Shown here: positions 11,301 through 55,111 of the stretch, in pieces
How the letters are laid out: the number at the start of each line of letters is the position of its first letter
How positions within the stretch are numbered: position 1 is the first letter of the stretch
Virus record (IMG/VR): IMGVR_UViG_3300042673_002246
Reading direction: 5' to 3' (one strand)
DNA: 64,000 nucleotides
Origin: a virus
Position numbers and translations under genes: made by a program
The notes under the pieces: generated by a model
Told to the model about the DNA's origin: nothing
Database searches by the model: none
What the model saw: only the letters and a program-made list of their open reading frames with translations

Positions 11301-12013
11301 AATTCTTGAATTCGTAGGCTTTCTTCAGCAAGATAAAGTTTTTCTTTTGCTTCCGTAACCCTACTTGACAGGGCTTTTTTAATTTCGCTTTCCCGTTGCG
11401 CAGGGTCGTTAATGTTTCTACTATCGAGGTCTTGCTCGATGAGTGCTACGTGTTCTTCACGTGTTTGATTTGCTGGATTTATTCCAGGTTTATCAATATC
11501 GATGGTGTCGACTGGCTCGTTGCTTCTTGAATTACCGCTAAGAACGACACCGTTATCTTTTCCTGTCCAATTCCCGGACCGCTCTAATTCGGCAATTGCA
11601 GCCCTTAGCCCTTCAACTCTTTTACGAGCCACAGCAACTCTTTCTTCTACTGGGCTGGTTTGTTCTGTTGTGTTTGCCTGCCCAGAAGAGAGTCGCACGG
11701 CTTGTCGAACCGCCTGGGTTTCATCGTTTGTGCCTATAAACCTTGGACGCGTTGTGCCCTCATCGACCCACCCGTCTGCATCCGGGTCGAAATTACTGCC
11801 GGTTGGTTTTCTGCTTCCTGGCACCCCTCCTGTTGGAACATCAATGTCTCCACGACGACGCCTACGTCCGCCTCCAACATTTGGCCTATCAATAAGACGA
11901 CTGCCCACATACGAGGCAAGGCGACGACCAATGGCCTTGGTTTCCTGCTCTAGCTCTCTACCTTTTCGGGAAAGCTCAAACGGAATCTCAAATTCCTCAT
12001 CTGCGTTAGACAT
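5396..12013 (-). CDS. Giant polyvalent protein A (2205 aa): leader, unknown module, DEDDh exonuclease, ART-like, unknown, GNAT, zincin and C-terminal module, separated by 7 LSSG linkers
   Basis: Long ORF; FFDYETTG...QNASFD...HTADAD (DEDDh); VYRAVP...INPGDWVT...EWG; RGNGIAS...WARNGF (GNAT); HEWGH...EAFAE (zincin). Confidence 0.85.
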   Translation of the reverse strand: MSNADEEFEIPFELSRKGRELEQETKAIGRRLASYVGSRLIDRPNVGGGRRRRRGDIDVPTGGVPGSRKPTGSNFDPDADGWVDEGTTRPRFIGTNDETQAVRQAVRLSSGQANTTEQTSPVEERVAVARKRVEGLRAAIAELERSGNWTGKDNGVVLSGNSRSNEPVDTIDIDKPGINPANQTREEHVALIEQDLDSRNINDPAQRESEIKKALSSRVTEAKEKLYLAEESLRIQEFEENRKKIRDEQNVLDVEEIPKEKIAVLKSEADSIRSLSQQEQDNLFISPTPTNAYFIHHGVAELDDGIFIPERTKGGGIGSGQILGNTRELNETQSRNLRRDFASTSVKVKAYRSLLQKLRANDESSVIENQDEVRAIANIIGSPYVAFASDDKFTKGWEVGDSLRISDINARKGNAFNLDGIISEVELNLGVEEKAASEMQSVLAALGDDKNFMSTHSGLYQAATKYSGYLDRYPTEAFSSMIKEIRTLWLQDLATARHRRGTSWFGVGKWGHDITDILGPGGEWQVLGKNKPIAGLSKPQGFSQTDYDDILFAMTPRIVKMHDERGYVDIDELLADINEPIDYSKRLSSGSDRPSYPRKPTYGAFIGGAEQEFGDAKTWQEFKDKYKNREIIFFDYETTGLVFDEFRKPSSNGQPTQFGAVKMKDGKIIDSINIFMDPEESLGEWSRANLKDIDGNPLTDEWLKTQTSIKKAHERLAEFAGDDAIFGVQNASFDKDVLELALSQSGITWRPKGYLDTKEISDMALPRWTPETDDGPFVLDADGNKKPSNGLAAITKYLNVDLGEKHHTADADAEATGLVMSAIIDGAIINGWSTDVLDKDKRDAKFNSNNAKFAAAVDKFEQDVAEYRRLSSGDDGDYRGMHMAPDADSGAPLHNLTGVYPDDVYSSSSIRYYGTGNDSFDAAAVDVVRRFRNKPNADVTVYRAVPISRDEQILRLEKQQKYILQYGRVPRGVSTNLHHSDYYDKLASELDALRNQEESELVSINPGDWVTPVRQYAVEHGEGVLRGDYEIIKKRVKAKDIYTNGDSWLEWGYDPDKRNSLSSGQDGAIQPKTFKLPKAAVEYDGGRIETSLKPDSGILFQAISDDDSIKEFGYVLRDIQKEVKDRDGNTRTTYSYEIEVHNPILAYDSIRDISTNSLRRSDEEKDKQLRALFRRRYNYARKIRKILAEEYDINEDNRLLERINEIRGLSSGKIYDSVVSEENYLSNEQRAGVESFSALMLNDELQKEDEWITKDDPRYSSFQKIQGIEYDVFEEEVLADSEERKALKESIKSAAKDMFSGEITTRNDVIVTATNGEKINLGRTFDVVVSPTDVVVQKMDEEEFEEASEALGVDGIMEGVKKRPSTSVSLKFTIETKDKDAVKRLTQAGIPRRERWDGIGDMEDFEKGQNEGQLVIADSIRTIVINGRNKIIVHDSLSVGAPARGNGIASIFNARNEAVYREIDAETILASAQSGKQGDYMGATHWARNGFTWASQGEQQKFIEVIDNAVNDSSRNWFTDEEKKRITSLYEKSKNGKFKTNATAEQLVDFEEADELFRAGEGVTILMKRDIKRKSQQSAPRTVVNRLLSRGGRKNRRTSNRLSSGGERPILKMNQPDIKAHQLKKYKYGDQSELGGNVRRSKSNWLKGMTPRQMSELLVPTSKEQYFEMLIDDFAPGGRDSEEYVKKFNAVHDEYFKNNPWDDIDFSPEAVEAVRNAVEQAVESNPKLKWAFETHGAPVFYMQTADASRAYESLPQVSSKLEQIKSVRGIGSKDPYVRARTTPFLNSVSFNRRLIIDRESNSLDTARENVTMDPTRLVTSRDNTIDKSIAGVITHEWGHWLHFRALKDVELAGKPKNRHYFGSGDPQDKRYAQALQVASEYNDVIMNPDMMARFSDGVDINSVTDSPMTLSSYGNTNKAEAFAEAVVAILHPNDKLKTYALNKKLREDVYSILFVDGNTEPWGNLAEKSQERNSSSAPRLSSGATVKKKRVKYSPEQIRQIASQVEVKYAETPEKRLLARKTLQKGFQGGFTVELDTMDDIKNGIAVARNKKGMIFPASADFTPDGEPTEELIDTFVAWLDFHGPEVFNNPSDGAERVAIGGWVDDGTLYLDVTDIYPTAQFLPRARDLGGQENQKAVTNLNVLWELLESGADDLSPAFIDTGGDGGQTITRETIERFRKALLAFESGDEGQPRLPIKNTKKKSS
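9410..10243 (-). other. DnaQ-like DEDDh 3'-5' exonuclease module within protein A
   Basis: Exo I DYETTG, Exo II NASFD, Exo III HTADAD, bounded on both sides by RLSSG. Confidence 0.85.
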
Positions 12014-17152: not shown

Positions 17153-19081
17153 ATGTCTATTCTTGACCCATCTTTCATCGCAAGTTACGCAGATAAAAAA
17201 ACACCATGGGGTTTCGGTGGTTTGGGCGAGGTTGTATACCTGCGCACATACAGCCGCCCAGTCGATGGAACTGGTCGCAATGAGACGTGGACCGAAACAA
17301 TTACCCGCGCAATTAATGGCGCAATTGAAATTGGCGTTCCATTTACGCCAGAGGAAGCAGAAAAGCTTTTTGACCACATGTTCAACCTGCGTTGCTCGCT
17401 TTCTGGGCGTGCTCTTTGGCAACTTGGCACACCGCTTGTCAAGAAGTTCAATGCAACTTCTTTGAATAATTGTTACTTCACAAATATTGAATCGATTGAA
17501 GATTTTGAATTGCTGTTTGAATACCTGATGCTGGGTGGCGGCGTTGGATTCTCGGTAGAGCGCTCGAAGATTCACGAGCTACCAAAAGTTAAGCCAGGCG
17601 TCGTCATCACTCACGAGCGGTCAAATGACGCAGACATTATCGTTCCTGACTCTCGTCAAGGATGGAAGCGACTCCTTCATGCAGTTCTTAAGTCATACTT
17701 TGATACTGGCAAGTCTTTTTCATACTCGACAATTTTAATTCGTGAATATGGCGCGCCATTGAAGACGTTCGGCGGTACCGCATCTGGTCCAGGCGCATTA
17801 ATTGACGGAGTTGCCGACATATGCAAGGTAATGCAGAATCGCGAGGGCAAGAAGCTTCGTTCAATTGACGTGCTCGACATTTGCAACATCATTGGTCGCA
17901 TCGTTGTTTCTGGTTCATCACGTCGTTCAGCACAGATTGCAATTGGTGACCCAGACGACGTTCTGTTTATTCGAGCAAAGAACTGGTCAACTGGCAGCGT
18001 TCCAGCGTGGCGTGCTAACTCCAACAACTCCATCTATGCAGATGCGTACGAAGAAATCATGACAGAACTCTGGAAGGGTTACGACGGCTCAGGCGAGCCA
18101 TACGGTCTTGTTAATCGCAAGCTTGCAAGGAATTATGGCCGACTAGGCGAAAGAATGGTCGACAATAGCATTGAGGGCTTCAATCCGTGTGCGGAAATTG
18201 CCCTCGCAGATGGCGAGTCATGCAATCTAGCCACAATATTTTTGCCAAATGTCGAATCACTTGAACAGCTAAAAGAAATATCAATGTTGCTATACAAGGT
18301 GCAGAAACAGATAACCAGGCTTGACTACCCATACGCAAAGACAACCGAGATTGTTCGCAAGAACGCAAGACTCGGCCAGAGCGTCACTGGAATCTTGCAG
18401 GTGGAGCAGGAAAAGATTGAGTGGCTTGATAAGGCGTATATAAATCTCCGTGAATTTGATAAAAAGTACTCGGCAGAAAATAATTGGCCAGAATCGGTTC
18501 GCCTTACAACAGTTCAGCCATCTGGTACCTTGGCGCTGCTCCCAGGCAACACGCCTGGTATACATCCAGGATTTGCGCAGTACTACATCCGACGTGTGCG
18601 CTTTGGTTCATCAGACCCATTGGTCGATGGTTGCCGTAAGCGCGGTTATAAAGTTCAGTGGGATATCGGAATTGACGGTCGCGAAGACCACACTAAATAT
18701 GTGGTTGATTTTCCGTGCGAATCGCCAGAGGGCGCAGTTCTTGCCGCAAGCATGACAGCAGTTGAGCAGCTTGAATGGGTGAAGAAGATGCAAACCGTAT
18801 GGGCAGACAACGCTGTGTCCGTAACCGTCTACTATCGCAAGGAAGAGCTCGATTCAATCAAAGAATGGTTATCCAAGAACTACGACAAGGGCGTCAAATC
18901 GGTGTCGTTTCTTTTGCACAGCGACCACAACTTCCCGCTTCCGCCATACGAAGAAATCACCAAAGAGGAATACCAAAAACTGATATCAAAAATAGATTTT
19001 TCAATTCCTTTGGTGCAAAATTCCTTTGACGGACTGCTTGCGCTTGATGATTGTGCTACTGGTGCTTGTCCTGTAAAGTAA
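17153..19081 (+). CDS. nrdJ: Class II (adenosylcobalamin-dependent) ribonucleotide reductase
   Basis: VYLRTYSR, SGRALWQLG, NNCYF, GFNPCAEI..CNL, TVQPSGT, C-terminal CATGACP; no nrdB nearby. Confidence 0.92.
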   Translation: MSILDPSFIASYADKKTPWGFGGLGEVVYLRTYSRPVDGTGRNETWTETITRAINGAIEIGVPFTPEEAEKLFDHMFNLRCSLSGRALWQLGTPLVKKFNATSLNNCYFTNIESIEDFELLFEYLMLGGGVGFSVERSKIHELPKVKPGVVITHERSNDADIIVPDSRQGWKRLLHAVLKSYFDTGKSFSYSTILIREYGAPLKTFGGTASGPGALIDGVADICKVMQNREGKKLRSIDVLDICNIIGRIVVSGSSRRSAQIAIGDPDDVLFIRAKNWSTGSVPAWRANSNNSIYADAYEEIMTELWKGYDGSGEPYGLVNRKLARNYGRLGERMVDNSIEGFNPCAEIALADGESCNLATIFLPNVESLEQLKEISMLLYKVQKQITRLDYPYAKTTEIVRKNARLGQSVTGILQVEQEKIEWLDKAYINLREFDKKYSAENNWPESVRLTTVQPSGTLALLPGNTPGIHPGFAQYYIRRVRFGSSDPLVDGCRKRGYKVQWDIGIDGREDHTKYVVDFPCESPEGAVLAASMTAVEQLEWVKKMQTVWADNAVSVTVYYRKEELDSIKEWLSKNYDKGVKSVSFLLHSDHNFPLPPYEEITKEEYQKLISKIDFSIPLVQNSFDGLLALDDCATGACPVK

Positions 19082-19170: not shown

Positions 19171-19185
19171 TCAAACACATCAATC

Positions 19186-19884: not shown

Positions 19885-19916
19885 TTGATTGAAGGTGTAA
19901 AAATTAACCATATTTT

Positions 19917-19992
19917 TGGCGAGTAGCTCAGTTGGCAGAGCAAGGGACTGTTAATCCCTGGGTCGTAGGTTCGAGCCCTACCTCGCCAGCCA
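19917..19992 (+). tRNA. tRNA-Asn(GTT)
   Basis: Cloverleaf, loop CTGTTAA, encoded CCA. Confidence 0.95.
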
Positions 19993-20055
19993 TTATGTGG
20001 ATTATTTAATTGTTTCCGATAGGGTACATCTAAACCACAAATTTAAAGGAAAATC

Positions 20056-20832: not shown

Positions 20833-20842
20833 CATAGGCGTC

Positions 20843-20932
20843 GGAGCGGTGGCAGAGAGGCTTATTGCACCTGTCTTGAAAACAGGAGTCCGTTTGCGCG
20901 GACCGGGGGTTCAAATCCCTCCCGCTCCTCCA
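20843..20932 (+). tRNA. tRNA-Ser(TGA)
   Basis: Cloverleaf with long variable arm, loop CTTGAAA, encoded CCA. Confidence 0.93.
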
Positions 20933-20938
20933 TATCCA

Positions 20939-21011
20939 GTCTGGGTAGCCCAATGGCAGAGGCACGGCGCTTAGGACGCCGCCAGTGAGAGTTCGAGTCT
21001 CTCTCCAGACA
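20939..21011 (+). tRNA. tRNA-Leu(TAG), short variable loop
   Basis: GTCTGGG/TCCAGAC acceptor, CGGCG-CTTAGGA-CGCCG anticodon arm, GAGAG-TTCGAGT-CTCTC T-arm. Confidence 0.85.
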
Positions 21012-21028
21012 CTATATTTTTAAGGGCT

Positions 21029-21100
21029 GCCCTTGTAGCTCAGTGGTAGAGCACCTCACTTGTAATGAGGTGGCCGTGGGTTCGACTCCCACCGAGGGCT
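21029..21100 (+). tRNA. tRNA-Thr(TGT)
   Basis: Cloverleaf, loop CTTGTAA. Confidence 0.93.
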
Positions 21101-21123
21101 CTACTTTTTGCTAGGTTCTATTT

Positions 21124-27167: not shown

Positions 27168-28517
27168 TCAGCTTGGCTCGTTGTCGAAGTCAACTTTGAC
27201 GAATGCTTCTGGACGCTTGACAGCAAGGGCGAGTCTCTGCTCGGCCAAGATGACGATTGCGTTGCGCACGAAGAAGTCTGAGTGCTGTTCCGAAATTCGG
27301 ATTGAAGCCTCTTCTCTGTCGTACAGCTGAGCACCGGTACCGAATGCACCGACCAGGGCTGTTCCCTCAGCGATTGCCGGGGTGTCAACGACTGGCATTC
27401 TCCAAACGCGTGGCTCGCCACCCATTGCCACTGACACAGCGACCAAGTACTGGCCGTTTGTATCCTTGGTCAATTCGATGTCTTCCCAGTCGTTCGGGTG
27501 CAACACGATGCCGGATGGCTCGTAGTAAGCAAGGAACGAGAGGGTTGCGGCACGACGAATTGCATCAGCCTTTGTGTCTGGAACTGGTGTGTCTGCACCG
27601 TCTGACCATGCGTACTCCTGAATGTTTGGAGTCTGAAGAACACCAAGAAGGTTTTCGCCAGTTCCATCGCCATTCAAAATCTGCGAGTCTTCTAGGAGAC
27701 GCAGACCGTACATGAGTTCGTTGTCGATGATTGAACGTAGCTGTGGCTCATCGGCGAGGACGTTGCGGTGTGCAGCTTCCCAGTGTGCCAATGTGCGAAC
27801 AGGAGCCTGCTCACCAACGAATGCGAACGATGACTGCGGCTTGATACCGAAGTTGCCACCAGAACGCTCAGCAACTGAAGATGCCGAGTTAACACCATGG
27901 CCAGCCTGAAGGGTTGTGAAACCGAGCTGACGGAAGTATTCGATTACTGCTGCAGATGTTCTGCGAACTGGGAACAGGTCGCGAACACGCTTTGTACGCA
28001 TTGGAGGAAGAACCATGGCATCGCGCTGAACGTTTCCGAAGCTGCCGAGGCGGCTGTCTGTAACTAGCGTTGTTGGCAATGCTGAGTAAACGTCCTTTAC
28101 GTTGTAAGCGGTCAATGAAGCAGCGACTTGCCATGGTGCAACCATGTTTGCGCCGTTACGGCCACCATTGAGTGTCTTGAACTCAGGTGACTCGATAAAC
28201 ATTTGACCGATTGACTTGATTTCGCGTGAGCTCAATTGACTGAGGTCTGCAGCTGCTGCAGCATAGCTTGAAGCTACTGCTTCTCCCTGTGGCTGTGATG
28301 ACCATGAGTCAACATCGCCCATTGTCTGAAGGTCAGCGAGCAGTGACTTAATTGACTTAATGTCCTGCATGTTCTTGTCGAATGCTGACTTCTGCTCAGA
28401 AGAAACAACTACTGTGCCTTCCTCGATTTTGAATGAGTCCGCAATGGCTTTATTGTCTGCCATTTTGGTGCGAAGAGCTGACTGCAGCTCTTCAATTCTT
28501 GCTTTGTCTTGTGACAT
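27168..28517 (-). CDS. HK97-fold major capsid protein with ~101-aa delta domain
   Basis: RVRDLFP, VRTLAHW, QILNGDGTGENLLG, IVLHPNDW, FVRNAIVILAEQRLALAVKRPEAFV. Confidence 0.96.
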   Translation of the reverse strand: MSQDKARIEELQSALRTKMADNKAIADSFKIEEGTVVVSSEQKSAFDKNMQDIKSIKSLLADLQTMGDVDSWSSQPQGEAVASSYAAAAADLSQLSSREIKSIGQMFIESPEFKTLNGGRNGANMVAPWQVAASLTAYNVKDVYSALPTTLVTDSRLGSFGNVQRDAMVLPPMRTKRVRDLFPVRRTSAAVIEYFRQLGFTTLQAGHGVNSASSVAERSGGNFGIKPQSSFAFVGEQAPVRTLAHWEAAHRNVLADEPQLRSIIDNELMYGLRLLEDSQILNGDGTGENLLGVLQTPNIQEYAWSDGADTPVPDTKADAIRRAATLSFLAYYEPSGIVLHPNDWEDIELTKDTNGQYLVAVSVAMGGEPRVWRMPVVDTPAIAEGTALVGAFGTGAQLYDREEASIRISEQHSDFFVRNAIVILAEQRLALAVKRPEAFVKVDFDNEPS

Positions 28518-42489: not shown

Positions 42490-45400
42490 CTATTCTTTTG
42501 TTCCTGATTTGCCGAACATGGTTCGACCTTCTTCTTGAAGTCTCTTACGTGCGTTTTCTAATTGCTCTTTACTGAAAATGTCCTCAATTGTGTGGCTTGT
42601 GCCAAATATTTCATTGAAACGATTGACCACATCCTGAAGCTCGTTGGATGAGTATCTTGGCTCATCACCCTTAATCTTGCTGAAAGTCTTGCCGCGTGTT
42701 TTTGCTGCATTGTTTAGAAGAACGGAAAGATTGCTCGTACCAAGGATGTATTCCTTATTTCTCTTGGTGTTTCCACCAGAACCCTTCTGGGTGTTTGATA
42801 TGAACTCAACCATCGCCTCGGCAACATTTGCCTTGCTTGCGCGAAGTTCACCGTCAAGCTTTTGACCATTTTCTGGCCAAACGCTTTCCGCATTCTCAAT
42901 CATCCCTGTCCGAATCATCTCCTGGATTGCTGCAACTGGCACTCCGTCACTTTCCCATGACTTCCTGTCTTTCGGATTGGTCAAACCGACATCATCCATC
43001 CCGAATGACCGCTTCATTCTTTCTCTTAGCTGAGCCATCCATTCGTCTCTGTCAAGACCAAGATTTTCGATGAGATTATCCAACTTGAAATCTCTTCTTG
43101 ATGTCTTTGCGCCAGCTGGGTTTGTTTCATTGACCGTCGGTGCTGGTGCTTCTGGAACAAAGTCTGGCATTCCCTCGTAAATAAGGTCAGCCTCGGCAGA
43201 AGCTTCGCCATCAGCGTCTTCTGGGTTTGGCGTAAATCTTCCAGTTGCCCTAAATTTTGCCACTGGGTCGACTTCTCCAAGAGTGGAGTATTCATCTGAA
43301 GAAATGATTTGATTTTCTTCCCTGTCGGCCCAGAACGGATATGCGTCTTTCCCAAATGTTTCAATGATGAATCTGTCGCGCATATTGGCTCTACCGAGAT
43401 TTTCGGCAAAACGTTGAGCTGACGACATCTTCTCCACGCCCGGCTCGTCTGAAGTTACTGGCGAGAACAATCTCCATCCACCAAATTCAGGTCTATTGCC
43501 GAGTTCTGCAACGAGGAATCTGACGGCATTGTGGGATATTCCAGAATCATCATCAGAAATCCTCTTTGCATCCTCTGGCGATAAATTTAGCAATCTTGAA
43601 AGGTCGGTGTTGGAAATTGGTTCCGACTTGGTCCACTTTACATCAGCAATTGTGTTGTCTGGATTTCTGACAACATCAAACTCAGTTGGAATTCTGATTG
43701 ATTCCTTCAGGCTCTTTACTGGAAGCATCCATGTATCTGCATCTGGATTCGAAAGATTTTCATTCCCAGATACGCGACCGATAGTTACTTGTGGTCGACG
43801 CTTCATTGCGGCGGCAGCCTTATCCAGGCCCTCATTTATCTGTCGTCTGCGCTCTTTTACTGTTCCGGACTTACTTGACGTATCTAGCGTTATTCCGCGT
43901 TTTCTAAAACCATCCCAGAATCTTCTGGCAAACGCGAATGACTCTCCAGTCTTTGAGCCTCTAATTGCAGCAAGATTTGTAGCATTGATATTGTCCGCAT
44001 AAGTGGACCCGCTACTCATTCTTCGTGCTTTTCTGTCAGCGCGATTTGAACTGTTTACTGAACGTGGCCCACCAACTGCTGCTGTCCGTTCTGGCGCTTG
44101 GACTCCTGGCGTTTCTGGTGCTGAGGTTTCTGTAGTGGCCTGTCGCTCAACATCTCCGCCACGAAGTCTTGCTCGTCTTGCCGACCTGTTGGTCCCAGTT
44201 CCTGGAACTGCTGTTTCAGGTACGCTATTTACGCGACCGCTTGAAAGTATCTCTCTTGCGCCATCAGGGAATACTTGCTCACCATCTCCAAATGGGTTCC
44301 AAAATCCAGAAGGAGCCTGCTGCTCCTCGGTTAGGAACTTTTCAATATATTCAAAACCCTTTGGATTTTTCTTTGGGTCGATAATCCATGACGTTGCCTC
44401 AGACAACTGAATGCGCTTTTTTGCGCGAGTCATCATGACGTAAATAAGGTTTTCCATTTCACGACTTATGTCATTCCCTGGAAGTATCGAACCATCGTCT
44501 TCAAACTTTGGCTGGAAGAAATCGTCTCCGGCAACCACGTTGTCGAATTCCAAACCTTTGGCTGCGTGTGTTGTTAAGAACGATGCATCAACTTCTGGCT
44601 CGTTTGCTGAGTCAGTTATCATTCTTCCAACAAGGCTGAGGAGCAATCCAGTCTCTTCTGGATTATCTCCCTTTATTCTTACAGCGTCATATGCTGGTGC
44701 ATTCGATGAGCCAGCCTTACGTGGTACGTACTGCTTTTCTATTGTGACTTTTCCTTCCAGATTGAGGTCTTTAATCATTTTCTCAATCCGGCGTCGCATC
44801 ATAGGCTTTTCGCCGTTCTTGTCACCTGTGTACTGAATTTTTCCTGCTGCGTCCCTGAACTGGTAGACATCAATTATTCCTTCACCGGAAATAATTACTC
44901 CATTCTCCCATTTCCCATCTGCACCAAGACTTTCGGTATCCAGTTTCCAGAAAACTTCTCTGCTTGGTGTCTGGCCGGTTGGGTTCGGGATGATGTTAAA
45001 TCGCTTATCACGATTCATCTTGTACGCACCCTTGGCTCCACCGCCGCCTTTACCTGCTTTTTGTTTTCCGAGAGCAATTAGTTCCTCACCAGAAACCGTC
45101 GAAGAACTTCCATCTATATTCTTGAATGGGTCAACATCGAGTGGTTCTTCTATTTCTCGTATTCTTGCTCTAGTTAAGACCTCGCCAGTTTGTGGGTCCC
45201 TTCGACCTAGCAATCTGTTTAGCCAGTCAAGTGGGGAAAGTTGATTTCCTTCTGCGTCTCGAACCTGCAAAAGCTTGAGCATTGAACCCAGTTGACCATA
45301 GGATGATTTTTGACCTGCGCGTTTTCTGATTTCCTCCATTGTCCACGCATTGCCAATAATCTTTGATTCGCGTGGTCGTGTCCCAACAGGACGGAGGACA

Positions 45401-48400
45401 AACTGATAGTGGCGTAGGAATTCAACCATGTCTCTGTATTTTTCGGCAGGCAATCCAACGATTTTGTCTGGATGCGCTCCGATGAATTCCAAGGCAGCTG
45501 TAAGGGTGTTTTTGTTTGAATAAGAAATATATGCCCACGTACCATCTGCGCTTGTTGGTATCTGACGGTAGAGGATTCCTTCCGATTCTGGAACGATGTA
45601 ACCACGAGCCTTGTCCAGTAGCTCATTTCTCTCTTTTTCTGGCATATCTGCCAGTGACTGTCCGTCTGGACCAGAAATTCCGTATTTCTTTTGTATTGAA
45701 TCAAGTTTCTTACGCAAATCATTTCCGGTGAGTGTTCCAAGATTGAAGTCATGAGAAACCACATCCTGAAGTCGGCCAAACAACTTGTAGTCCGCAGAAA
45801 CCTCATCAATCCCATTCTGCCTGTCGGTCATGTTTCCACGACCAAGCATCAAGTTTCCAAGGAACGCAACTGTCTTTCCGTATCTGAATGAGTCAGTCAA
45901 CGTCAAGTTGAAATCTGGATTGAGTCGAGCGAATGAGTCAGATGAACCACGGAATCCATAAATTGATTGCCGTGGGTCACCGACCATGACTATTGCAAGA
46001 TTATTATTCGCAATATTGTCTTCAATCACCTTTTGGAGAACTGGGTTTACGTCCTGAGCTTCGTCAAAGAAGAAAGTCGAAATGGGCTTATCTTCCGTTG
46101 CATATCGGCGACGCAATCCGGCGCGTGCTCCACCACCTGTGTAGACATAATCCACACCATCAACTTGGACTATTGAGCCTGGGTCAAGTTTTTTGTCCTG
46201 TGCTCTTGCATCTTTCACTTTTCTTGTGCCGTGACCAACCATTCCAGCGTCTGTACGCAGATTTGGTTTTTGCATAGCCCAAATCTTTACTTGCTGGTCG
46301 TAGTTGGGCAGCACATTGCTCTTCGGGTCGAGCGTGTCAGACCACATTTTGAGTGCTAGGTCAACCCACTCTTGTGGTATCTGGTCGAATGCTGTTTCGG
46401 CAGGGTCGATTGGGTCGCCAGACTCGGCAAGTTGCTTATTTCTTTCAATTTCGTGTGGACGAAGCTTGAAATGTTTTTCACTAAGCGCATCATCATCACT
46501 CTGTGAATAACGAGTAAGGGCGTTGATGAGAACAAGACCATAATCGTCAGCAGTCAGCTCCACCCCTTCGTGGGTAAGTCCGTCTGGGTATTTCGTGCCG
46601 AAATCGTAGTGTCTCGCTACGTCGCGACCACCGCTTTCTGTTTCAAACGAAACGTATCCCAAAGTTCTGAATCCAGCTTTTTTCAATCCTGTTGTATCGA
46701 CAGTTTTTCCACCATATCCCTCTGCAGACGTTTGTCTTGTTGATTTAGGGTTTGCTGATGAGTAGTACTCGTTGCCGGCGCCAATGCCTATCTTTTTTAG
46801 TTTCTCTTTGAACTCTGGAGAAATTCCTGGCCTGTCTTCGAGCAATAGGGACCAGTATGCCAATTGGTTAATCGAAGAGCTTCCTGTGTTGTCAGGCATT
46901 CTACGTGCTGCTTCTGCAGCATTTTTCTTATTGAATGTTATGTAATAAAACTGTGACTCCGGAGATTCCTTGGCCATACGAATAACAGATTGTTCAACTG
47001 TGGTGGTTTTACCTGCTCCGGCTCCTGCGCGAACAGCAGCCAATCCACCTTCACCAGTTTTTGTGAAGTGTGCAACTGTGTCCATAACGTCTTTTTGTTC
47101 ATCAGTCGGCTCAAACTTCATTCCAAACATTTCCATGAACGAACCCTCAGTTCGCTCAATCTTGCGCTTAGGGTCCTTGGCGCCAACAATTGGTCCGCGG
47201 CCAGAAGAAAGACGCTTGTTAATTTGGTTATACGTGTTGCCTTCTTCGTCCTTGATAACGAATCCGGTTATGCCGCTTGAAAGACGATTATTCTCGTAGT
47301 CCTCAAGGATAGTTTTTACTGCAGATGGACCTTGTCCACGAACACGCACGCGTTGACGTACTTTGTTTTCTGGTGTTGGTGTGCCGACAACTGGCTTTTT
47401 CTTTGGAATTGGGATAGTGATTCGACCAACGATTGGCGCTTCAATTGTGTAGTCTTCTTTACCCTTGCGTTCGCTGTCTGGAACACCAGCGCGCTTGCGC
47501 AGCGTTGCTGACTTATTCATAATGTAGTCAACAGCCTGCTGTCCGCCTTCAATTGCACGACGGATTGAGCTTGGGTCGTCCTGCAGTGCTTTGCGCCAGA
47601 ACGCTAGGTACTGAATATGGTCTTCGCGTATTTGAGGCTCTACACCGAGGAATCCCATCGCAAATGAAGCACCGATTTCTGCGATGAGTTCTTCAAATGC
47701 GTATTTCTTTCTCTGTTCTGGGGTGCCCTTCATTCTGCCGCTTAGGTCCCTCTTTAGTCGCGATGGATGGGCTGTCCAGTGAATAATTTCATGCAGAACT
47801 GTTCCATAGAAAGCAATTGGTTCAATAAAGTTCTCAAATGGAGGAACATTTATCGTGTCGTCGTTTGGGTCGTAGAATGCGCTGACTCCCTGTTCCTTGT
47901 ATCTAGGACCAATTTCTTTGATTACATTTTCAATGTCTTCAAGTCGTTGTGCCGCATCAAGTTTTTCTGTTTCTTTGACTTCGTAGACCCATGCTGGCAG
48001 TCCGTCCATTTGGTCGGCGTTGAATACTGTTTCAATTTTGAAACCCTTTTCACCAGTACGAATTCCGTCATCATTTTTTATGTCAAACGGAACGAGGATA
48101 TTGACACCAAGTTCTCCTGGTTTTGGTTTTGCTTTCTTATTCAACTCACGCCACTGCGAACGTCCAGCCCAACGATTTGTTTTGTATTTGCGCTTTGATG
48201 CGACCTGGGAAAGAATCAATTGATTCATGCCTTGATAAATACGATTTCTTCTTGTTGGATTTCGACCGTACAACTCTGGCGAGCGCCAAGGCACTTGCCA
48301 CTGGCCAGCTTTGCTTGGGTCCTTTAATATCTCATCAAGCGCAGCAATAATTGCTTCACCCATTTGCTGGTACATGTCTTTAATACGAGCTGCATCTGCT

Positions 48401-51354
48401 TCTTGATTTTCATCTTTTCCAGATGACAGTGTCTGGCCATCCCTGTATTCCCAGAGTGGTCCTAAGTAGTCTTGCTTTTCACGACGAGTGCGCTTGTTTT
48501 CTGGCTTTTTTAGGAAATTCTCAAATCCACTAGAAAGTCTTGGCGCGCTCTCGGCAGCACGCGATGCACTGCCTCTTCGAATCTCGGACATGTATCTTTG
48601 TTCTGCCTGGCGCACCTCCGTTCTTGTTACACCAAGTTTTTTGGCCATATCCTCAATGGATACGCCATTCATACGCTCTTCGTAAATATCCTGGTCTGTA
48701 TAGTCTTCTGGGTTCTTTTCTGGTGGAGCGATTTTCCCTCGTTTTGGACGTGGCATTTCTTCGCCGAGGAAATCTCTAATAATTCTGTCGTATGTATCAG
48801 TTCCGCTCTCATCGAATGGAAGGTTGTCGTCGCCGTAGGGATTATCTGGGTCGAAATCGTCATCGAGCGCAGGAAGTCTTCCGGATGAGAGTTTTCTATC
48901 TGGCTTGTTTGGGCTTGCACCGTCGAACCCATATGAGTTCATCCAGCGAGCAAGAGCCTCTTTATCGTTTGGGTCCCATGTTCCAGTTGACGGGCGACGC
49001 TCATAGACTTCGCTGCGTAGCGCACTATCAAGTCCTTTAAGAAACTGGCTCTCGCCGTCTTCGCCAACATAATTTTTATTCTTGTCCTTTTTGTCTTTTC
49101 CAGCAAAATACTTATTTGTTGCATCGAGGTATGTGCCTAGTGTGCGAACAAAATCGTAATACCACTCTTGATACGCCTGTCCGCTCTTTGCTTTTTCGTT
49201 GAATTTTGCTGGGCGCTTCTTATCGTCGCCTTGCCATGCTCTTCTTGCTTGGTTGTACCCAAGCTCGCGCCCTCTTAAGAACTCTGCGGAACGTGTATTG
49301 TCTGTTTGGTAGCGAGGCACTTCTTCCCAGCCGAAGCCCTTATCAACCCATTCCTGTGCAGTCTTGTCAAATGCTTCTCGTCTTGCCTGTTCATCTGGTG
49401 CGACACCAAACTTACTCTCGGTTTCTTTTCCAAGACCGTGACGTGAAGTATTAAATCGTGAGCGTTTCTCAGCTCCAGAAGAGAAGGGTTTTGACGGTGT
49501 TGCCGGTTTTGCATCTTGCACGCCGACGAAGCGGGGTCGTGTTGTTCCTTCATCTACCCAGCCATCGTTGTCGGGGTCGAAGTCGCTCCCCGTTGGTCGT
49601 CGATTTCCTGGTGTTCCGCCGGTTGGCATGTCAATGTCGCCACGGCGATTTCTTCTGTCTCGACGGCCACCGATTGATGGTCTGTCAATGAGTCTGCTGC
49701 CAACGTAGCTTCCTAGTCTTCGGCCAATCGCTTTTGACTCAAACTCAGAGCTATCTAGAAATTTTTTTTTTATGTTTTCCAGAGCGTTATCGACTGCTTC
49801 AATAAAATCTAAACTAACCCCGGATTTGAGAACGATTCCATCAATATCCACTTCTGCATCAACCATGTAGTAATCGAGAATTGGGTCAATTTCTTGCTTG
49901 ACACGGAACGCGTCATTTGGGTGAAGCGGAATGCAGTATTGCTCATCGAATGAGTTGTCATCTTTGCCAAATTCAGAAAGTGATTTAAATTTGCTACGCT
50001 TCTTTTTTCTCCTACCTACCGCTCCGCGAAGCATGGCCATGACAAACTCGCCAGGGTACTTAACTTCTAGGTCTTCAATAGCTTCATCGAAATTTGCGTC
50101 TTCTTCAATTTCGTATTCTTTTTTAGCAATTCCATCGACATTGACAACGCCTTTTGGAATTACTGCAAAACGACATTTGCCTTCTGGTTCGATGTCCATA
50201 TCAACAATCTTGCATGACCCATCATTTTGGAAGAACACGCAATTTGCACACTTGACCCCGATTGATGCGATGGGATTTTCTGAAGCCGGTTTATATCCAG
50301 CCCACACACCATCTTTGTCTTCGTTGAACTTGCCGTGGCGTTTTACAATTTTTAGCAAAGCGTCACGCAGGTCCGCTTCCTCTTTATCGAGGTTGTTCTT
50401 ATCTATTGGCTTGTTATTGCCCTCTTCGTACTGAACTGCAGGGAGCGGAACAACAACAACACCCTCCATGCCTGGCTTGACAGCTATTGGCATTGATGGC
50501 ATCTGCTGTGGGCGGACCATTCTTCTTGGCTCATTTGGCGGAACCATCATTGGTGCTGTTTGTGGTGCGGACGGTCTCTGCATCACTATTTCTTCTGGCG
50601 GGCCGAACATCATTCGACCACCCGTTCGACTCCAGCCACACTTGAATCTCTTAACTGAACCGTCAGCCACACGACGAGCAAATGTCAGATTTTCGTCGTC
50701 CATTTCCATGAGCGATATTTTTGCGCCAAGCATTCCTGAGAGTTGCTTTTCAATTTCCAACTTGTTCGGCTTTTCATCATCCATCATCATGACGGAGCTA
50801 TCTTCGCCGTATGGGTCATCTGTCTTCACGGAAATTGTGCCAGTCAGTTGATTGGCTCCATGAAGAACTGGAGACACTTCATAAAGCTCCAACTCGTAAA
50901 TTACGTTTGCCTGAGACTTTTGGTCATACTGTGCGCGCAGGGTTTTATATCCAATCGACCATTCTTGTTCTTCTCCAAAGAAAGCAACCATCGTGAAAGC
51001 TTCGCGGCCCTTTTCTGACTGAAGATTAAATTGAACTTTTGCAAATAATCCGCCGATTCCAGCAATCTTCATTTTTAGTGGTAGGCGTGGGTCAGACGGT
51101 GGCACCTCGTAAATTTCGAGTACTTTGCCGATTGGGTCATTCCAGTTATGGCCCCACACAACACGCGGCTTGCGGCGCTGAAGACTCTTCGTAAAAGCAC
51201 CACTTGCGCAAATATCACCAACAGAGTCTTTATTGCCGATTCCAGCTACAAAGCACTCAACAATTCCTTGCATCTCATCGAGATTGACGGAGCCGGCTTT
51301 CTGTGAAGCGGAGCCAAGGGATGTCGACTTGTATTCAAAGTGGTCAGTGGTCAT
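42490..51354 (-). CDS. Giant protein C (2954 aa): HK97-type prohead protease fused to HiPIP-like motif, shared leader, ArdC-like antirestriction module and UvrD-like SF1 helicase
   Basis: GNKDSVGD...WGHNW..PIG...WSIGY...LYEVSPVLHGAN (protease); YQGMN, LHEIIHWT, YAFEELIAEIGA (ArdC); AGAGAGKTT, DEAQD, VGDPRQSIYGFRG, SFRYG, THAAKGLEFD, YVMMTRAK (UvrD); 8 xSSG linkers. Confidence 0.9.
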   Translation of the reverse strand: MTTDHFEYKSTSLGSASQKAGSVNLDEMQGIVECFVAGIGNKDSVGDICASGAFTKSLQRRKPRVVWGHNWNDPIGKVLEIYEVPPSDPRLPLKMKIAGIGGLFAKVQFNLQSEKGREAFTMVAFFGEEQEWSIGYKTLRAQYDQKSQANVIYELELYEVSPVLHGANQLTGTISVKTDDPYGEDSSVMMMDDEKPNKLEIEKQLSGMLGAKISLMEMDDENLTFARRVADGSVKRFKCGWSRTGGRMMFGPPEEIVMQRPSAPQTAPMMVPPNEPRRMVRPQQMPSMPIAVKPGMEGVVVVPLPAVQYEEGNNKPIDKNNLDKEEADLRDALLKIVKRHGKFNEDKDGVWAGYKPASENPIASIGVKCANCVFFQNDGSCKIVDMDIEPEGKCRFAVIPKGVVNVDGIAKKEYEIEEDANFDEAIEDLEVKYPGEFVMAMLRGAVGRRKKKRSKFKSLSEFGKDDNSFDEQYCIPLHPNDAFRVKQEIDPILDYYMVDAEVDIDGIVLKSGVSLDFIEAVDNALENIKKKFLDSSEFESKAIGRRLGSYVGSRLIDRPSIGGRRDRRNRRGDIDMPTGGTPGNRRPTGSDFDPDNDGWVDEGTTRPRFVGVQDAKPATPSKPFSSGAEKRSRFNTSRHGLGKETESKFGVAPDEQARREAFDKTAQEWVDKGFGWEEVPRYQTDNTRSAEFLRGRELGYNQARRAWQGDDKKRPAKFNEKAKSGQAYQEWYYDFVRTLGTYLDATNKYFAGKDKKDKNKNYVGEDGESQFLKGLDSALRSEVYERRPSTGTWDPNDKEALARWMNSYGFDGASPNKPDRKLSSGRLPALDDDFDPDNPYGDDNLPFDESGTDTYDRIIRDFLGEEMPRPKRGKIAPPEKNPEDYTDQDIYEERMNGVSIEDMAKKLGVTRTEVRQAEQRYMSEIRRGSASRAAESAPRLSSGFENFLKKPENKRTRREKQDYLGPLWEYRDGQTLSSGKDENQEADAARIKDMYQQMGEAIIAALDEILKDPSKAGQWQVPWRSPELYGRNPTRRNRIYQGMNQLILSQVASKRKYKTNRWAGRSQWRELNKKAKPKPGELGVNILVPFDIKNDDGIRTGEKGFKIETVFNADQMDGLPAWVYEVKETEKLDAAQRLEDIENVIKEIGPRYKEQGVSAFYDPNDDTINVPPFENFIEPIAFYGTVLHEIIHWTAHPSRLKRDLSGRMKGTPEQRKKYAFEELIAEIGASFAMGFLGVEPQIREDHIQYLAFWRKALQDDPSSIRRAIEGGQQAVDYIMNKSATLRKRAGVPDSERKGKEDYTIEAPIVGRITIPIPKKKPVVGTPTPENKVRQRVRVRGQGPSAVKTILEDYENNRLSSGITGFVIKDEEGNTYNQINKRLSSGRGPIVGAKDPKRKIERTEGSFMEMFGMKFEPTDEQKDVMDTVAHFTKTGEGGLAAVRAGAGAGKTTTVEQSVIRMAKESPESQFYYITFNKKNAAEAARRMPDNTGSSSINQLAYWSLLLEDRPGISPEFKEKLKKIGIGAGNEYYSSANPKSTRQTSAEGYGGKTVDTTGLKKAGFRTLGYVSFETESGGRDVARHYDFGTKYPDGLTHEGVELTADDYGLVLINALTRYSQSDDDALSEKHFKLRPHEIERNKQLAESGDPIDPAETAFDQIPQEWVDLALKMWSDTLDPKSNVLPNYDQQVKIWAMQKPNLRTDAGMVGHGTRKVKDARAQDKKLDPGSIVQVDGVDYVYTGGGARAGLRRRYATEDKPISTFFFDEAQDVNPVLQKVIEDNIANNNLAIVMVGDPRQSIYGFRGSSDSFARLNPDFNLTLTDSFRYGKTVAFLGNLMLGRGNMTDRQNGIDEVSADYKLFGRLQDVVSHDFNLGTLTGNDLRKKLDSIQKKYGISGPDGQSLADMPEKERNELLDKARGYIVPESEGILYRQIPTSADGTWAYISYSNKNTLTAALEFIGAHPDKIVGLPAEKYRDMVEFLRHYQFVLRPVGTRPRESKIIGNAWTMEEIRKRAGQKSSYGQLGSMLKLLQVRDAEGNQLSPLDWLNRLLGRRDPQTGEVLTRARIREIEEPLDVDPFKNIDGSSSTVSGEELIALGKQKAGKGGGGAKGAYKMNRDKRFNIIPNPTGQTPSREVFWKLDTESLGADGKWENGVIISGEGIIDVYQFRDAAGKIQYTGDKNGEKPMMRRRIEKMIKDLNLEGKVTIEKQYVPRKAGSSNAPAYDAVRIKGDNPEETGLLLSLVGRMITDSANEPEVDASFLTTHAAKGLEFDNVVAGDDFFQPKFEDDGSILPGNDISREMENLIYVMMTRAKKRIQLSEATSWIIDPKKNPKGFEYIEKFLTEEQQAPSGFWNPFGDGEQVFPDGAREILSSGRVNSVPETAVPGTGTNRSARRARLRGGDVERQATTETSAPETPGVQAPERTAAVGGPRSVNSSNRADRKARRMSSGSTYADNINATNLAAIRGSKTGESFAFARRFWDGFRKRGITLDTSSKSGTVKERRRQINEGLDKAAAAMKRRPQVTIGRVSGNENLSNPDADTWMLPVKSLKESIRIPTEFDVVRNPDNTIADVKWTKSEPISNTDLSRLLNLSPEDAKRISDDDSGISHNAVRFLVAELGNRPEFGGWRLFSPVTSDEPGVEKMSSAQRFAENLGRANMRDRFIIETFGKDAYPFWADREENQIISSDEYSTLGEVDPVAKFRATGRFTPNPEDADGEASAEADLIYEGMPDFVPEAPAPTVNETNPAGAKTSRRDFKLDNLIENLGLDRDEWMAQLRERMKRSFGMDDVGLTNPKDRKSWESDGVPVAAIQEMIRTGMIENAESVWPENGQKLDGELRASKANVAEAMVEFISNTQKGSGGNTKRNKEYILGTSNLSVLLNNAAKTRGKTFSKIKGDEPRYSSNELQDVVNRFNEIFGTSHTIEDIFSKEQLENARKRLQEEGRTMFGKSGTKE
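44251..47199 (-). other. UvrD/Rep-like helicase module in protein C
   Basis: Major SF1 motifs present, bounded by RLSSG and ILSSG. Confidence 0.9.
47287..48417 (-). other. ArdC-like ssDNA-binding/zincin antirestriction module in protein C
   Basis: W..PW...N...Y.G.N, VFNADQ, HEIIH, EELIAE; bounded by TLSSG and RLSSG. Confidence 0.88.
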
Positions 51355-51460: not shown

Positions 51461-53527
51461 TTAGAACTGAGCGAAGTTCCAGGCTCGGCGTGTCTCTTCT
51501 TCAGCAATTTCGACATGTTCTTTTGCAAGAAGATTTGCATACATTTCAATTAGCTCTTGTCTGAAGGATGAAAATCTTCGCTCTTCGTCAGAATAAACAA
51601 ACGATTTAAGCATTATTTCATTGATATTAAAGGCTGTCTGCTCATTTATTTTTTTGATATTTGCAACGTGTGAATCAACAGCTCTCAAGAAATCTAGAGG
51701 CGGTATAGCTCTTGGCGACAAACCCTTTACATGCATTCTTTCGCGTTTTGATTCATGCGAGTCATTGATAATCGCGGAAACAACTGGCTTTAGGTCATCT
51801 TCAAATTGCTTATTCCATGAGTCAATCGAGAGTATTGAATCGATGTCAAGCGTTCCAGCCATGAGCCCTTTTCTTGCCTTGCTTCCACCAGACTTTTCCA
51901 GTACAACTCGTTGCTGTCTTTCCAGAATTCTCTCAATTCCTCGTGAAAGTATTTCCGACCAACGCTCAATTGAAGTTTCTGTTCTGTCTTCGACAGCTGG
52001 CTCAGCTGATTTGTACTGCATCTCGCCGCTTTCTGCGGTGAGCGCTCCAGGTGGAGTTGGTGCAGCTCCAGTTTGTAATGCGGCTGCTTCTGGCGGGAGT
52101 GTACTTTGAGCAAGCTCGCCTGTTTGTGCAACCTCGGCCATTGCACCCTGCATCGTGTTCGGGTCAAGGGGGATATTTTCCATCGGTGGGGCCTGACCTG
52201 GCATTGGCGGCATTCCAGGAATTGGTGGCATACCGGGAGCTCCAGGCATACCTGGGGCTGCACCAGGGACCATTGCAGCGTTCTCGTCCATCTTCTTCTT
52301 TGTATTCGCAATCGGAATTAAGTTTGGATTAGCGAGGAGTGAGTCAGCAAGGTCGGACTCAACTTCTTTTCTTGAGGAACCAATTCGGTATTCGTTTCCG
52401 CTTATCAATCCAGCCTGAAACTCTGTAAGCAAATATCTATCGCGCTCTTGCTTGTACAACTGAAGAATTGGAACTTCGCTCGTATCGAAGTCGACATAGT
52501 TTTTATCGTCCAACTCATCAAGTGCTCGCGCAATCGGTTCTAGGTGCGGCAACATTGTTTCCATCCAGAAGACACGTATTTCTTCCGCAGCATTGCTGAA
52601 TGTTCTTCCAGCTGCGTTTCCTATTACTGATTCCGGCACACCGAATGCAGCAAGAATTTCTTCTTTCGTAACTTGGCGCATCTGGATATACGCGGCATCG
52701 CGCGGGCTCGCTGATGTGTCAACAAAATCAACGCCATCGTCTGCTGCGATTACTGTTGTATGTCCAGTCTTGGATAGGTTGCCACGGAACCTGCTCTTTA
52801 ATTCTTCTTTATCGTCTTCATCTATTTCTCCACGGACTACAAGCAAGCCGCCAGGACGGCCGTCATTAAGGAGATAGTTTCTGTTGTAGAGCTTCGCAAG
52901 ATTTTCAATTTCAATAGCTACACCAGCAGCCTCGAGCGGAGTAAGTGACAGATATGGGTCAAGTGGGTGTGGACGGCGAATCCAGCAAACATCTTCTGGC
53001 TTAAGTATTACCTTTTCTCCGTAGGGCATGGCAACTTCATAGCCGGAAACAAATGTTTTCGGATGAGGGATTGGCGCCGTTGCCTGTGGTGGTAGAAGAT
53101 TAAGGGCGATTATTCCGCCGTCTCTTCCGCGTATTTTCTCAATAAATGCTCCGCGCGTACCAAGAAGAAGCTGTGCAGAAAGCCTATATCTAAAGATAAA
53201 ACTATTTTCCCCAACGTTGGCTCTTGTGTTTAGTAGCTCGAGCAACGTGGAGCGATTTGCTTCTTTACCAACTATTATCTCGCCCTTGTTGGAATTATCT
53301 TTTCGAAGAATCACTGGCAGTCGTGCCTGATTACCGGCAATTGCATCAATACACCTGTTTACCCAGGTGATTTTGGACATGCCCTCGCGATATGCGCGTT
53401 CAATGTCCCATGAATCTCGATATGGTTTATGTACAAGACCTGGGTTTGCCGAAATTGGTGCACCAAAGGCAATCTGCTTTGAGTCAGACGACTTGAGTGA
53501 TTTATCTTTTGGAGAGTTCCAGCCCAT
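51461..53527 (-). CDS. Portal protein (HK97-like) with Pro-rich linker and C-terminal extension
   Basis: WVNRCIDAIA, GAFIEK.R, LTPLEAA, NDGRPGGLL, EILAAFGVPES.IG, NEYR. Confidence 0.92.
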   Translation of the reverse strand: MGWNSPKDKSLKSSDSKQIAFGAPISANPGLVHKPYRDSWDIERAYREGMSKITWVNRCIDAIAGNQARLPVILRKDNSNKGEIIVGKEANRSTLLELLNTRANVGENSFIFRYRLSAQLLLGTRGAFIEKIRGRDGGIIALNLLPPQATAPIPHPKTFVSGYEVAMPYGEKVILKPEDVCWIRRPHPLDPYLSLTPLEAAGVAIEIENLAKLYNRNYLLNDGRPGGLLVVRGEIDEDDKEELKSRFRGNLSKTGHTTVIAADDGVDFVDTSASPRDAAYIQMRQVTKEEILAAFGVPESVIGNAAGRTFSNAAEEIRVFWMETMLPHLEPIARALDELDDKNYVDFDTSEVPILQLYKQERDRYLLTEFQAGLISGNEYRIGSSRKEVESDLADSLLANPNLIPIANTKKKMDENAAMVPGAAPGMPGAPGMPPIPGMPPMPGQAPPMENIPLDPNTMQGAMAEVAQTGELAQSTLPPEAAALQTGAAPTPPGALTAESGEMQYKSAEPAVEDRTETSIERWSEILSRGIERILERQQRVVLEKSGGSKARKGLMAGTLDIDSILSIDSWNKQFEDDLKPVVSAIINDSHESKRERMHVKGLSPRAIPPLDFLRAVDSHVANIKKINEQTAFNINEIMLKSFVYSDEERRFSSFRQELIEMYANLLAKEHVEIAEEETRRAWNFAQF

Positions 53528-53797: not shown

Positions 53798-55111
53798 ATG
53801 ACACAAAAACCGAATTGGGCTGAAGTTCTCGAATATCTGCAACCCAAGATGCCTCCCTTCTGCCCAGAAGAGCCATCAATAAACCAAAGAGTTTTTTTAA
53901 GAACTAATTCAATAGAAGCCCTATTTGGTGGTGCAGCAGGTGGTGGAAAGTCAAGCGCTTTGCTAATGGCTGCTCTCCAGTATGTAGATGTGCCTGGGTA
54001 TTCGGCCATTCTTTTCCGTAGAACTTTCGCTGACCTTTCGCTTCCCGGAGCCCTGATGGACCGCTTTAAGTCCTGGATGTCCAACTACGATGATGTGCAT
54101 TGGAATGCAAATAGCTTCATCGCCACTTTCCCATCTGGCGCCCGCATTTCATTCGGGTATCTAAATAATGCCAATGACTATTTACGCTATAAAGGCTCGG
54201 AATTTCAGTTCATTGGAATGGACGAAGTAACCGAAATCCGTGAATCTGATTATCGATACCTATTCTCCCGTTTGCGTCGCCCTGCGAGCGGACCAATTTC
54301 TCAAGTGCCATTAAGAATGCGTTCAGCATCAAACCCTGCTCCCAACTGGGTTAGACAGAGATTCATTGTTGAGGGTCGTCAGGAAAACCGCATTTTCGTT
54401 CCATCTAAGTTGACCGACAACCCAGGAATTGACGCTGAATCGTACCGACAGGCCCTTGCTGCACTTGACCCCGTGGAAAGACGTCGCCTAGAAATGGGCG
54501 ACTGGTGGTCGACAACGCTCGGAACTCTTTTTGAAAGAACTTCATTTATTATTATCGACCCAGAAGAAATCCCTGAAATCAAAAGTTCTGCCCGTGTTGT
54601 TAGATTTTGGGACCTTGCTGCCACCGAACCATCCCAGAGCAACCCGAATCCAGACTATACGGTCGGAACGTTGATGATGTTTGACGGCGGTGTTGCCTAC
54701 ATTCTGGATGTAAAACGAGCACGAGTAAAAGGTGAAAAAGTAGAGCAGCTGATTGCCCAGACAGCTCAGGAAGATGGTCTGGGAGTATCAATACGAATGG
54801 AACAAGAACCAGGTTCGTCGGGTAAAGCACTTGCCGACCAATATGCCAGGTATGTGGTTCCTGGGTACGATTTTGGGGCAATACGTTCTACTGGAGACAA
54901 AGAAACTCGCGCACGGCCATTCGCCGCCGCTGCAGCCAACGGAAATGTACGTATTATTCGTGCACCTTGGCTGACTGCATGGATGGATGAATTTTCATCT
55001 TTCCCCGAAGCCTGCGACCACGACGACCAGGTCGACTCAGCTGTCGGAGCATTTACGTTTTTAACTGGCCTGGGGTTGCCACAGAGAAAGCGTGTCTCTA
55101 TACTGATTTAG
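53798..55111 (+). CDS. terL: Terminase large subunit
   Basis: FGGAAGGGKS Walker A, FIGMDEVT Walker B, SASNP, RFWDLAAT, HDDQVDS nuclease motifs. Confidence 0.95.
   Translation: MTQKPNWAEVLEYLQPKMPPFCPEEPSINQRVFLRTNSIEALFGGAAGGGKSSALLMAALQYVDVPGYSAILFRRTFADLSLPGALMDRFKSWMSNYDDVHWNANSFIATFPSGARISFGYLNNANDYLRYKGSEFQFIGMDEVTEIRESDYRYLFSRLRRPASGPISQVPLRMRSASNPAPNWVRQRFIVEGRQENRIFVPSKLTDNPGIDAESYRQALAALDPVERRRLEMGDWWSTTLGTLFERTSFIIIDPEEIPEIKSSARVVRFWDLAATEPSQSNPNPDYTVGTLMMFDGGVAYILDVKRARVKGEKVEQLIAQTAQEDGLGVSIRMEQEPGSSGKALADQYARYVVPGYDFGAIRSTGDKETRARPFAAAAANGNVRIIRAPWLTAWMDEFSSFPEACDHDDQVDSAVGAFTFLTGLGLPQRKRVSILI

Follow-up and report, generated by a model that had tools for sequence, protein, structure and literature searches.

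A conserved run of ten adenines as a candidate programmed slippage site between the prohead protease and the polyvalent cargo of large lake phages

The window analysed here, that is the whole stretch of 64,000 nucleotides from the 133.9-kb IMG/VR virus record IMGVR_UViG_3300042673_002246, carries on its minus strand an open reading frame (ORF) of 2954 amino acids (P0001, 42490..51354) in which a prohead protease is fused to a polyvalent cargo, as identified with Pfam and PHROGs. A run of ten adenines (A10) lies where the protease module (residues 1-531) is joined to a cargo of about 2400 residues, predicted to be packaged in the capsid and probably injected. The run is conserved as a nucleotide sequence, with stop codons close behind it in both shifted frames, in all the 28 related lineages that were compared. 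Judging from this sequence comparison, the A10 is probably a programmed slippage site.

The A10 run, its stops and their conservation

The homopolymer appears as T10 on the plus strand at positions 49762..49771. Read on the minus strand from 49773 to 49750, the sequence is ATA AAA AAA AAA TTT CTA GAT AGC, corresponding to codons 528-535 (I K K K F L D S) of P0001. The run consists of the third base of ATA (Ile528) and the three AAA codons of Lys529 to Lys531, and the proposed slip cassette (49750..49773, minus strand) is composed of this A10 and of TTT CTA GAT AGC, with a TAG in each of the two shifted frames. Translation of the altered frames gives IKKK-ISR-stop when one A is added (TAG at 49753..49751, product of 534 amino acids) and IKK-NF-stop when one A is removed (TAG at 49757..49755, product of 532 amino acids). 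The TAG at 49753..49751 also closes the frame entered by a -1 ribosomal shift. The earlier note, made from the sequence alone, had described the A10 at the protease/cargo boundary, the almost immediate stops after gain or loss of one A and a shared leader about nine codons further on. All three are found on the minus strand as it described them, and the leader begins at residue 537 and hence starts nine codons after the ATA codon 528; it displays 71% identity with a second ORF of the window.

The A10 is the longest homopolymer of the window. The second longest is a T9 on the plus strand (17085-17093), located about 60 nucleotides upstream of the ORF 17153..19081 of the same strand. The lysine codons of P0001 are divided almost equally between AAA (110) and AAG (108), and the other KKK triplets of this ORF mix both codons.

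Relatives were drawn from IMG/VR, JGI, ENA and Logan, and their DNA was collapsed into 28 lineages sharing less than 90% local nucleotide identity, with 34-100% amino acid identity to the window. An unbroken run is present in the 28 lineages: A10 in 22 of them, A11 in five (all followed by an ATx codon) and A9 in one. The lysine codons of the site are AAA in 83 of 84 cases (three codons in each of the 28 lineages), and the codon that precedes the run (CTA, TTA, ATA, GTA or ACA) ends in A in 27 of the 28 lineages. The only exception, lineage L022 (F-K-K-K-S), reads TTT AAA AAA AAA AGT, so that the run has moved by one base and is still an A10; this change of register points to a selection acting on the nucleotides and not on the peptide. 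As controls, the share of AAA among the lysine codons elsewhere in the genes of the relatives is comprised between 17 and 85% (51% when pooled), and three invariant lysine columns near the run, in the same 28 sequences, are encoded by AAG in 25-64% of cases. The run is the sole contiguous block of invariant nucleotides in the alignment of the 28 sequences. Its conservation at the nucleotide level thus exceeds what the protein requires, and it is a homopolymer of at least nine bases inside a coding sequence, with lengths from A9 to A13 among the homologues, both of which are features of transcriptional slippage sites. Homologues with mixed lysine codons and no run, which the earlier note had named as the observation that would contradict it, were searched for and not seen in this set, a result that supports its interpretation.

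The stops are conserved with the run. In 28/28 lineages a message with one A more would run into a stop after 1-6 codons and a message with one A fewer after 0-4 codons, whereas in the same ORFs both shifted frames are closed that quickly at only 1-13% of the codon positions. The pattern NNN YTA RNT GAN following the run is kept among the lineages, and where a leucine is found two codons past the run (17 cases) its codon is always TTA or CTA, with A or G as the next base. Both alternative frames would give defined products in every lineage.

More than 300 homologues of 2300-4700 amino acids were detected in the protein database, with the protease first as in P0001. In the alignment of their 800 N-terminal residues the motif [ILVF]KKK is kept down to about 45% identity, and other lineages are devoid of the whole segment of about 18 amino acids bearing KKK. 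The cultured phages lie outside of this comparison. The junction had no blastn match among 50,697 phage records, and with tblastn only the protease domain (residues ~1-190) was matched, in actinophages. No closely related cultured phage was detected: only the protease domain (about 40% identity) and the head protein (about 49%) have cultured counterparts, in actinophages (Gordonia GMA6 and Brevibacterium Cantare, among others), and these are uninformative about the slip site.

Run-length variants and recurrence at other junction positions

A census of run lengths was realized in the IMG/VR and JGI metagenomes with the pattern DP[IV][FL][DE]Y followed by a run of at least nine A. It recovered 54 unique family contexts, 51 of which could be scored downstream. 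In 46 of these 51 contexts the cargo is in frame with the protease (33 with A10, 12 with A11 and one with A9), and the five others (about 10%) have an A9 and are out of frame. To these lengths, contigs from ENA and Logan add A12 and A13, each in excess by one base. A search for short protein forms gave called proteins of 534-548 amino acids that end right after KKK with tails from a shifted frame. In their contigs the run is one base off and the cargo carries on in another frame; the off-frame lengths are A13 in L102, A9 in L103 and L104 (from two samples), A12 in L105 and A11 in L217.

A particular form of the run, in which TTA or ATA is followed by AAA AAA AAG TCC (A9G), is found in several lake samples and contains the sequence A_AAA_AAG. 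One member is in frame (L061) and five are out of frame (L103, with the run at L103:4623-4631, L104, L109, L175 and L177). In the out-of-frame members the protease ORF stops four codons past the run and the cargo continues in the -1 frame. The conserved leader is there devoid of ATG, GTG or TTG for 59 codons, so that a fusion can only arise by slippage or by a -1 shift, that is, either by an A gained in the messenger RNA or by a -1 ribosomal shift on A_AAA_AAG. The start-less leader is almost identical in L175 and L109, and a comparison of synonymous and non-synonymous changes between them carries no information. Gene callers split the locus of the A9G genomes into a protease of 548 amino acids and a truncated cargo gene. 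More generally, contigs where the run is one base off are annotated as a protease of 534-548 amino acids and a "start-less" cargo with an arbitrary internal start, and the two parts should be joined.

The run also appears to be restricted to this part of the genes. In five full-length ORFs (2840-4138 codons), exactly one run of at least nine bases is present in each, always between codons 528 and 576. Among the lineages without the segment of 18 amino acids, an A10 in the register NNA AAA AAA AAA is found elsewhere in the junction of L218, L054 and L050. It encodes GGKKKR in L218 (L218:2026-2035, in the leader/junction), DRKKKL in L054 (codon 159 of the match, in the leader/junction) and GLKKKP in L050 (codon 219 of the match), where it is located directly before the first LSSG motif. 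At these three places an added A leads to a stop within 1-3 codons, and a missing A to one within 3-10 codons. These positions suggest, at the level of sequence, that the device was gained repeatedly. L060 has its only run, an A9, far downstream of the junction, some 680 codons after the match begins.

Proposed slippage by the polymerase and alternative explanations

We favour a slippage at the level of transcription. While copying the T10 template, RNA polymerase would realign the nascent RNA and produce a mixture of messenger RNAs with 9, 10, 11 or more A's. Those with 10 or 13 A's would encode the full protease-cargo fusion of 2954 amino acids, and those with 11 or 9 A's would reach a stop 3 or 2 codons further on and give a protease-only protein of 534 or 532 amino acids, respectively. 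One gene would then deliver free and cargo-bearing protease in a fixed proportion, and this proportion would limit the load of the cargo, of about 270 kDa, in each procapsid, as with Gag and Gag-Pol. By analogy with other A9-A11 sites, the efficiency of slippage could be of 15-55%. A wider proposition, which we find as easy to doubt as to accept, is that the packaged anti-defence cargo of large uncultured lake phages is dosed like the retroviral Pol, the slip site fixing the ratio, and that the device arose repeatedly (an A10 being found at no fewer than three junction positions) and in both polarities. Both polarities are indeed represented in the genomes, since the fusion is the default in most of them and could arise only by slippage in the others.

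The search for elements stimulating a ribosomal frameshift was negative. RNAalifold predicted 0 pairs for the 28 sequences from -45 to +100, the fold of the window site alone is unremarkable (z = -1.0), no block resembling a Shine-Dalgarno (SD) sequence (GGAGG-like) is conserved upstream of the run in the 28-sequence alignment, and a scan for promoters and terminators at the junction detected no stimulator. Of the usual -1 frameshift cassette, the site has the heptamer A_AAA_AAA in the zero-frame register; a stem-loop or SD-like element was not found with it. In view of the absence of RNA structure and of an SD-like element at the junction, a slippage of the polymerase is favoured over a classical stimulated -1 frameshifting.

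Several points weigh against this interpretation or weaken it. The sequence A_AAA_AAA is also a heptamer for ribosomal -1 frameshifting and poly(A) also induces sliding of the ribosome, so that the level of the slip, polymerase or ribosome, is not fixed by the sequence. A conserved ExK|A motif is located just downstream of the run, and a cut at this motif could free the protease after translation, making the short form less obviously needed. When the window was shuffled 100 times with its dinucleotides preserved, 70 of the shuffled sequences contained at least one A10 or T10, and the mean number was 2.2; a lone A10 in 64 kb is within chance, and the significance of the run therefore comes only from its conservation in the relatives. 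The 28 lineages share an ancestry, and naive probabilities such as 10^-32 overstate their independence. No run was detected near the junction in the fused lineages L055, L085 and L093, which shows that a slip site is not essential to the architecture. Finally, the RNA polymerase of Escherichia coli is reported to slip less on runs of A than on runs of U in the RNA (PMC6260861). A profile search of the 133.9-kb record for a T7-like RNA polymerase (PF00940) gave no match, but the control genomes gave none either, which deprives this negative of weight.

The most serious alternative, although an unlikely one in our opinion, is that the same two products are made at the ribosome, by a -1 frameshift on A_AAA_AAA or by sliding on poly(A), followed by the stop three codons later. 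Of the 28 lineages, 27 have the heptamer in the register that such a shift requires, and the A9G lineages carry the dnaX-type sequence A_AAA_AAG, on which a -1 shift restores exactly the frame of the cargo in the out-of-frame members; even so, the A9G form retains nine A's in a row and is still a run. A -1 frameshift needs seven bases, yet ten are kept, and the last lysine codon is AAA and not the shiftier AAG in 27/28 lineages. Neither a downstream hairpin nor an upstream SD-like element is conserved, as seen above. Stops are maintained in both shifted frames, which a mechanism acting only in the -1 direction would not require, and the variants with one base in excess (A12, A13 and the A11 of L217) would need a +1 shift. 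The ten A's kept, the last AAA codon, the closure of both frames and these +1-requiring variants taken together fit better with a slippage of RNA polymerase.

Alternatively, the run could be a contingency locus at the DNA level, where slippage during replication would create heritable A9, A10 and A11 genotypes and a mixed population of fused and split genomes (phase variation). The pairs of close genomes are in line with this idea: L185 and L046, drawn from separate samples, share 99.9% identity over 3.5 kb and are distinguished by a single gap at the run (A9 and out of frame in L185, A10 and in frame in L046), and L217 (A11) can be set beside L218 (A10), in addition to the A12 and A13 variants. 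The difference between L185 and L046 is either a true polymorphism of run length or a homopolymer error of assembly, and the latter may apply to single-base differences between assemblies in general. A tract varying freely in phase would show a broad spread of lengths, whereas about 90% of the unique contexts are in frame and A10 is the modal length across lineages that are saturated at synonymous sites. Furthermore, a genome of the split type would be deprived of its leader-bearing cargo, except where slippage restored it. We consequently give little credence to this explanation.

Least probable of all is that no recoding takes place, KKK being kept for a reason linked to the protein (a linker or a cleavage context) and the A-run and stops being incidental, for although [ILV]KKK is conserved as a protein motif, an A10 is within chance in one window of 64 kb and AT-rich sequences abound in out-of-frame stops, a reading based only on the protein is rejected by the codon statistics (83/84 AAA at the site against about 50% elsewhere) and is at odds with the wobble base A preceding the run in 27/28 lineages, the survival of the run through the change of register in L022, the recurrence of A10 at other junction positions and the presence of one run of at least nine bases per giant ORF.

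The proposed polymerase slippage can be compared with known systems. In the dnaX gene of E. coli, a -1 frameshift occurs on A_AAA_AAG with the help of an upstream SD-like element and a downstream stem-loop. The phage site resembles it by a heptamer of lysine codons, by a -1 frame that is closed at once and by the truncated product predicted from it, and the A9G phage lineages have the identical heptamer; however, the stimulators were sought at the phage site and not found, and ten A's are kept instead of seven. The recoding of Gag/Gag-Pol offers a functional analogy, as it sets at a joint the balance between an assembly protein and a form of it carrying enzymes destined for packaging, the long form being processed by a virion protease. 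It differs from the phages, which are DNA phages, in that the long form is the default in most of their genomes and slippage would lead to the short one, and in that the cargo is devoted to anti-defence and DNA handling.

The closest precedent is the dnaX gene of Thermus thermophilus (tau/gamma), where transcriptional slippage occurs at an A9 with stops nearby in both non-zero frames (PMC5009743). As in P0001, the long ORF encodes the full product and the A run is inside the gene; the slipped messenger RNAs of Thermus give a C-terminal truncation that shares its N-terminus with the full product (PMC5009743), as would those proposed for P0001. The Thermus gene encodes a subunit of the clamp loader, in contrast to a phage head protease with its cargo, and the phage run, of A10-A11, is known from sequence. 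The genes tssM1 of Citrobacter rodentium (A11) and tssM3 of Yersinia pseudotuberculosis undergo a transcriptional frameshifting of 20-25% on poly-A; both length variants are needed and their ratio is functionally important (PMC4256274). Slippage makes the long form in the Citrobacter gene and the short form in the Yersinia gene (PMC4256274). The likeness with the phages concerns the production from poly-A, predicted in the phages, of two length variants of a component of a structural machine, the existence of both polarities (in the phages, the in-frame and out-of-frame genomes) and the absence of SD-like or hairpin stimulators. The tssM genes nevertheless belong to a bacterial secretion system, and poly-A was found in only two of them (PMC4256274) as against dozens of diverged phage lineages.

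The polyvalent proteins described by Iyer et al. (2017, PMC5512222) combine, like P0001, the MPTase-PolyVal zincin, ArdC-N and helicase modules in one giant chain, but their description includes no slip site and no fusion to a head protease. The words "frameshift" and "slippage" are absent from that paper, and "prohead protease" occurs only in its reference list (PMC5512222). In the literature that we searched, no slip site is described for either prohead proteases or polyvalent proteins. The class of mechanism is already known, as in dnaX, and its proposed placement in a phage gene for head protease and cargo would be new. If the proposal is true, this would be a clear and widely conserved example of programmed slippage affecting a gene of the phage head, beyond the classical cases of tail chaperones and capsids, and it would bear on how a phage sets the number of copies, per capsid, of a huge injected polyprotein with anti-restriction and helicase modules.

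Architecture of P0001 and neighbouring genes

The N-terminal part of P0001 contains a domain Peptidase_S78 (HK97-type prohead protease) at residues 31-174 (50833..51264, minus strand). The assignment to this family is based on the profile PF04586 (38 bits for a cut-off of 21), on the head maturation protease phrog_80 (1e-25) and on the neighbouring portal gene, and the domain is 40% identical to capsid maturation proteases of actinophages. The remainder of the predicted short product (residues 175-527; 49774..50832, minus strand) is composed of a linker rich in proline and methionine, a Cys4 HiPIP-like module (residues 321-407) and a conserved C-terminal domain that ends with ...DFIEAVDNALEN directly before the A10. 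This domain ahead of the run (...IEAVDxAL-N) is kept in all lineages, and the whole protease module falls within the predicted short product.

The HiPIP-like module (50134-50394, minus strand, about 85 amino acids) has counterparts, at 50-67% identity, within more than 100 small proteins from metagenomes. In some of them it is fused to Dps/ferritin-like (PF00210), PF19141, PF19197 or PF01355 domains, and two copies are sometimes present. It may represent a portable head-associated module.

After the run, the cargo begins with the leader (residues 537-619, EFESKAIGRRLGSYVGSRLIDRP...DGWVDEGTTRPRF; 49498..49746, minus strand), which is conserved across homologues. The ORF of 2205 amino acids already mentioned for its 71% identity (5396..12013, minus strand) has a second copy of the leader at residues ~22-102 (11708..11950, minus strand; tblastn E = 6e-32). 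This ORF starts with about 21 residues before the leader and has matches to ParB-C and to exonuclease-like proteins. The leader may be a common signal for the packaging or processing of separately encoded cargo. Further on, P0001 contains an ArdC-N domain and the MPTase-PolyVal zincin at residues 992-1267 (47554..48381, minus strand; PF08401, 1e-12; PF18818, 2e-33; anti-restriction protein phrog_7245), then a UvrD-like superfamily 1 helicase at residues ~1420-2320 (44395..47097, minus strand; PF00580, 2e-16; PF13245; PF13361; phrog_1967). A giant multidomain chain, the zincin, ArdC-N and a helicase are the features of polyvalent proteins, and P0001 has all of them.

The portal gene (51461..53527, minus strand; phrog_2662, 7e-67) is located immediately upstream of P0001 and places it in the context of the head module. 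The gene of the large terminase (53798..55111) lies on the strand opposite to P0001, and the major head protein is encoded at 27168..28517. Finally, seven tRNA genes were detected in the window (Met, Val, Arg-TCT, Asn, Ser-TGA, Leu-TAG and Thr; 19094-21101, 566-639 and 1331-1403). There is no tRNA-Lys among them, and the tRNA-Leu(TAG) decodes CUA, one of the two leucine codons that flank the run in most lineages.

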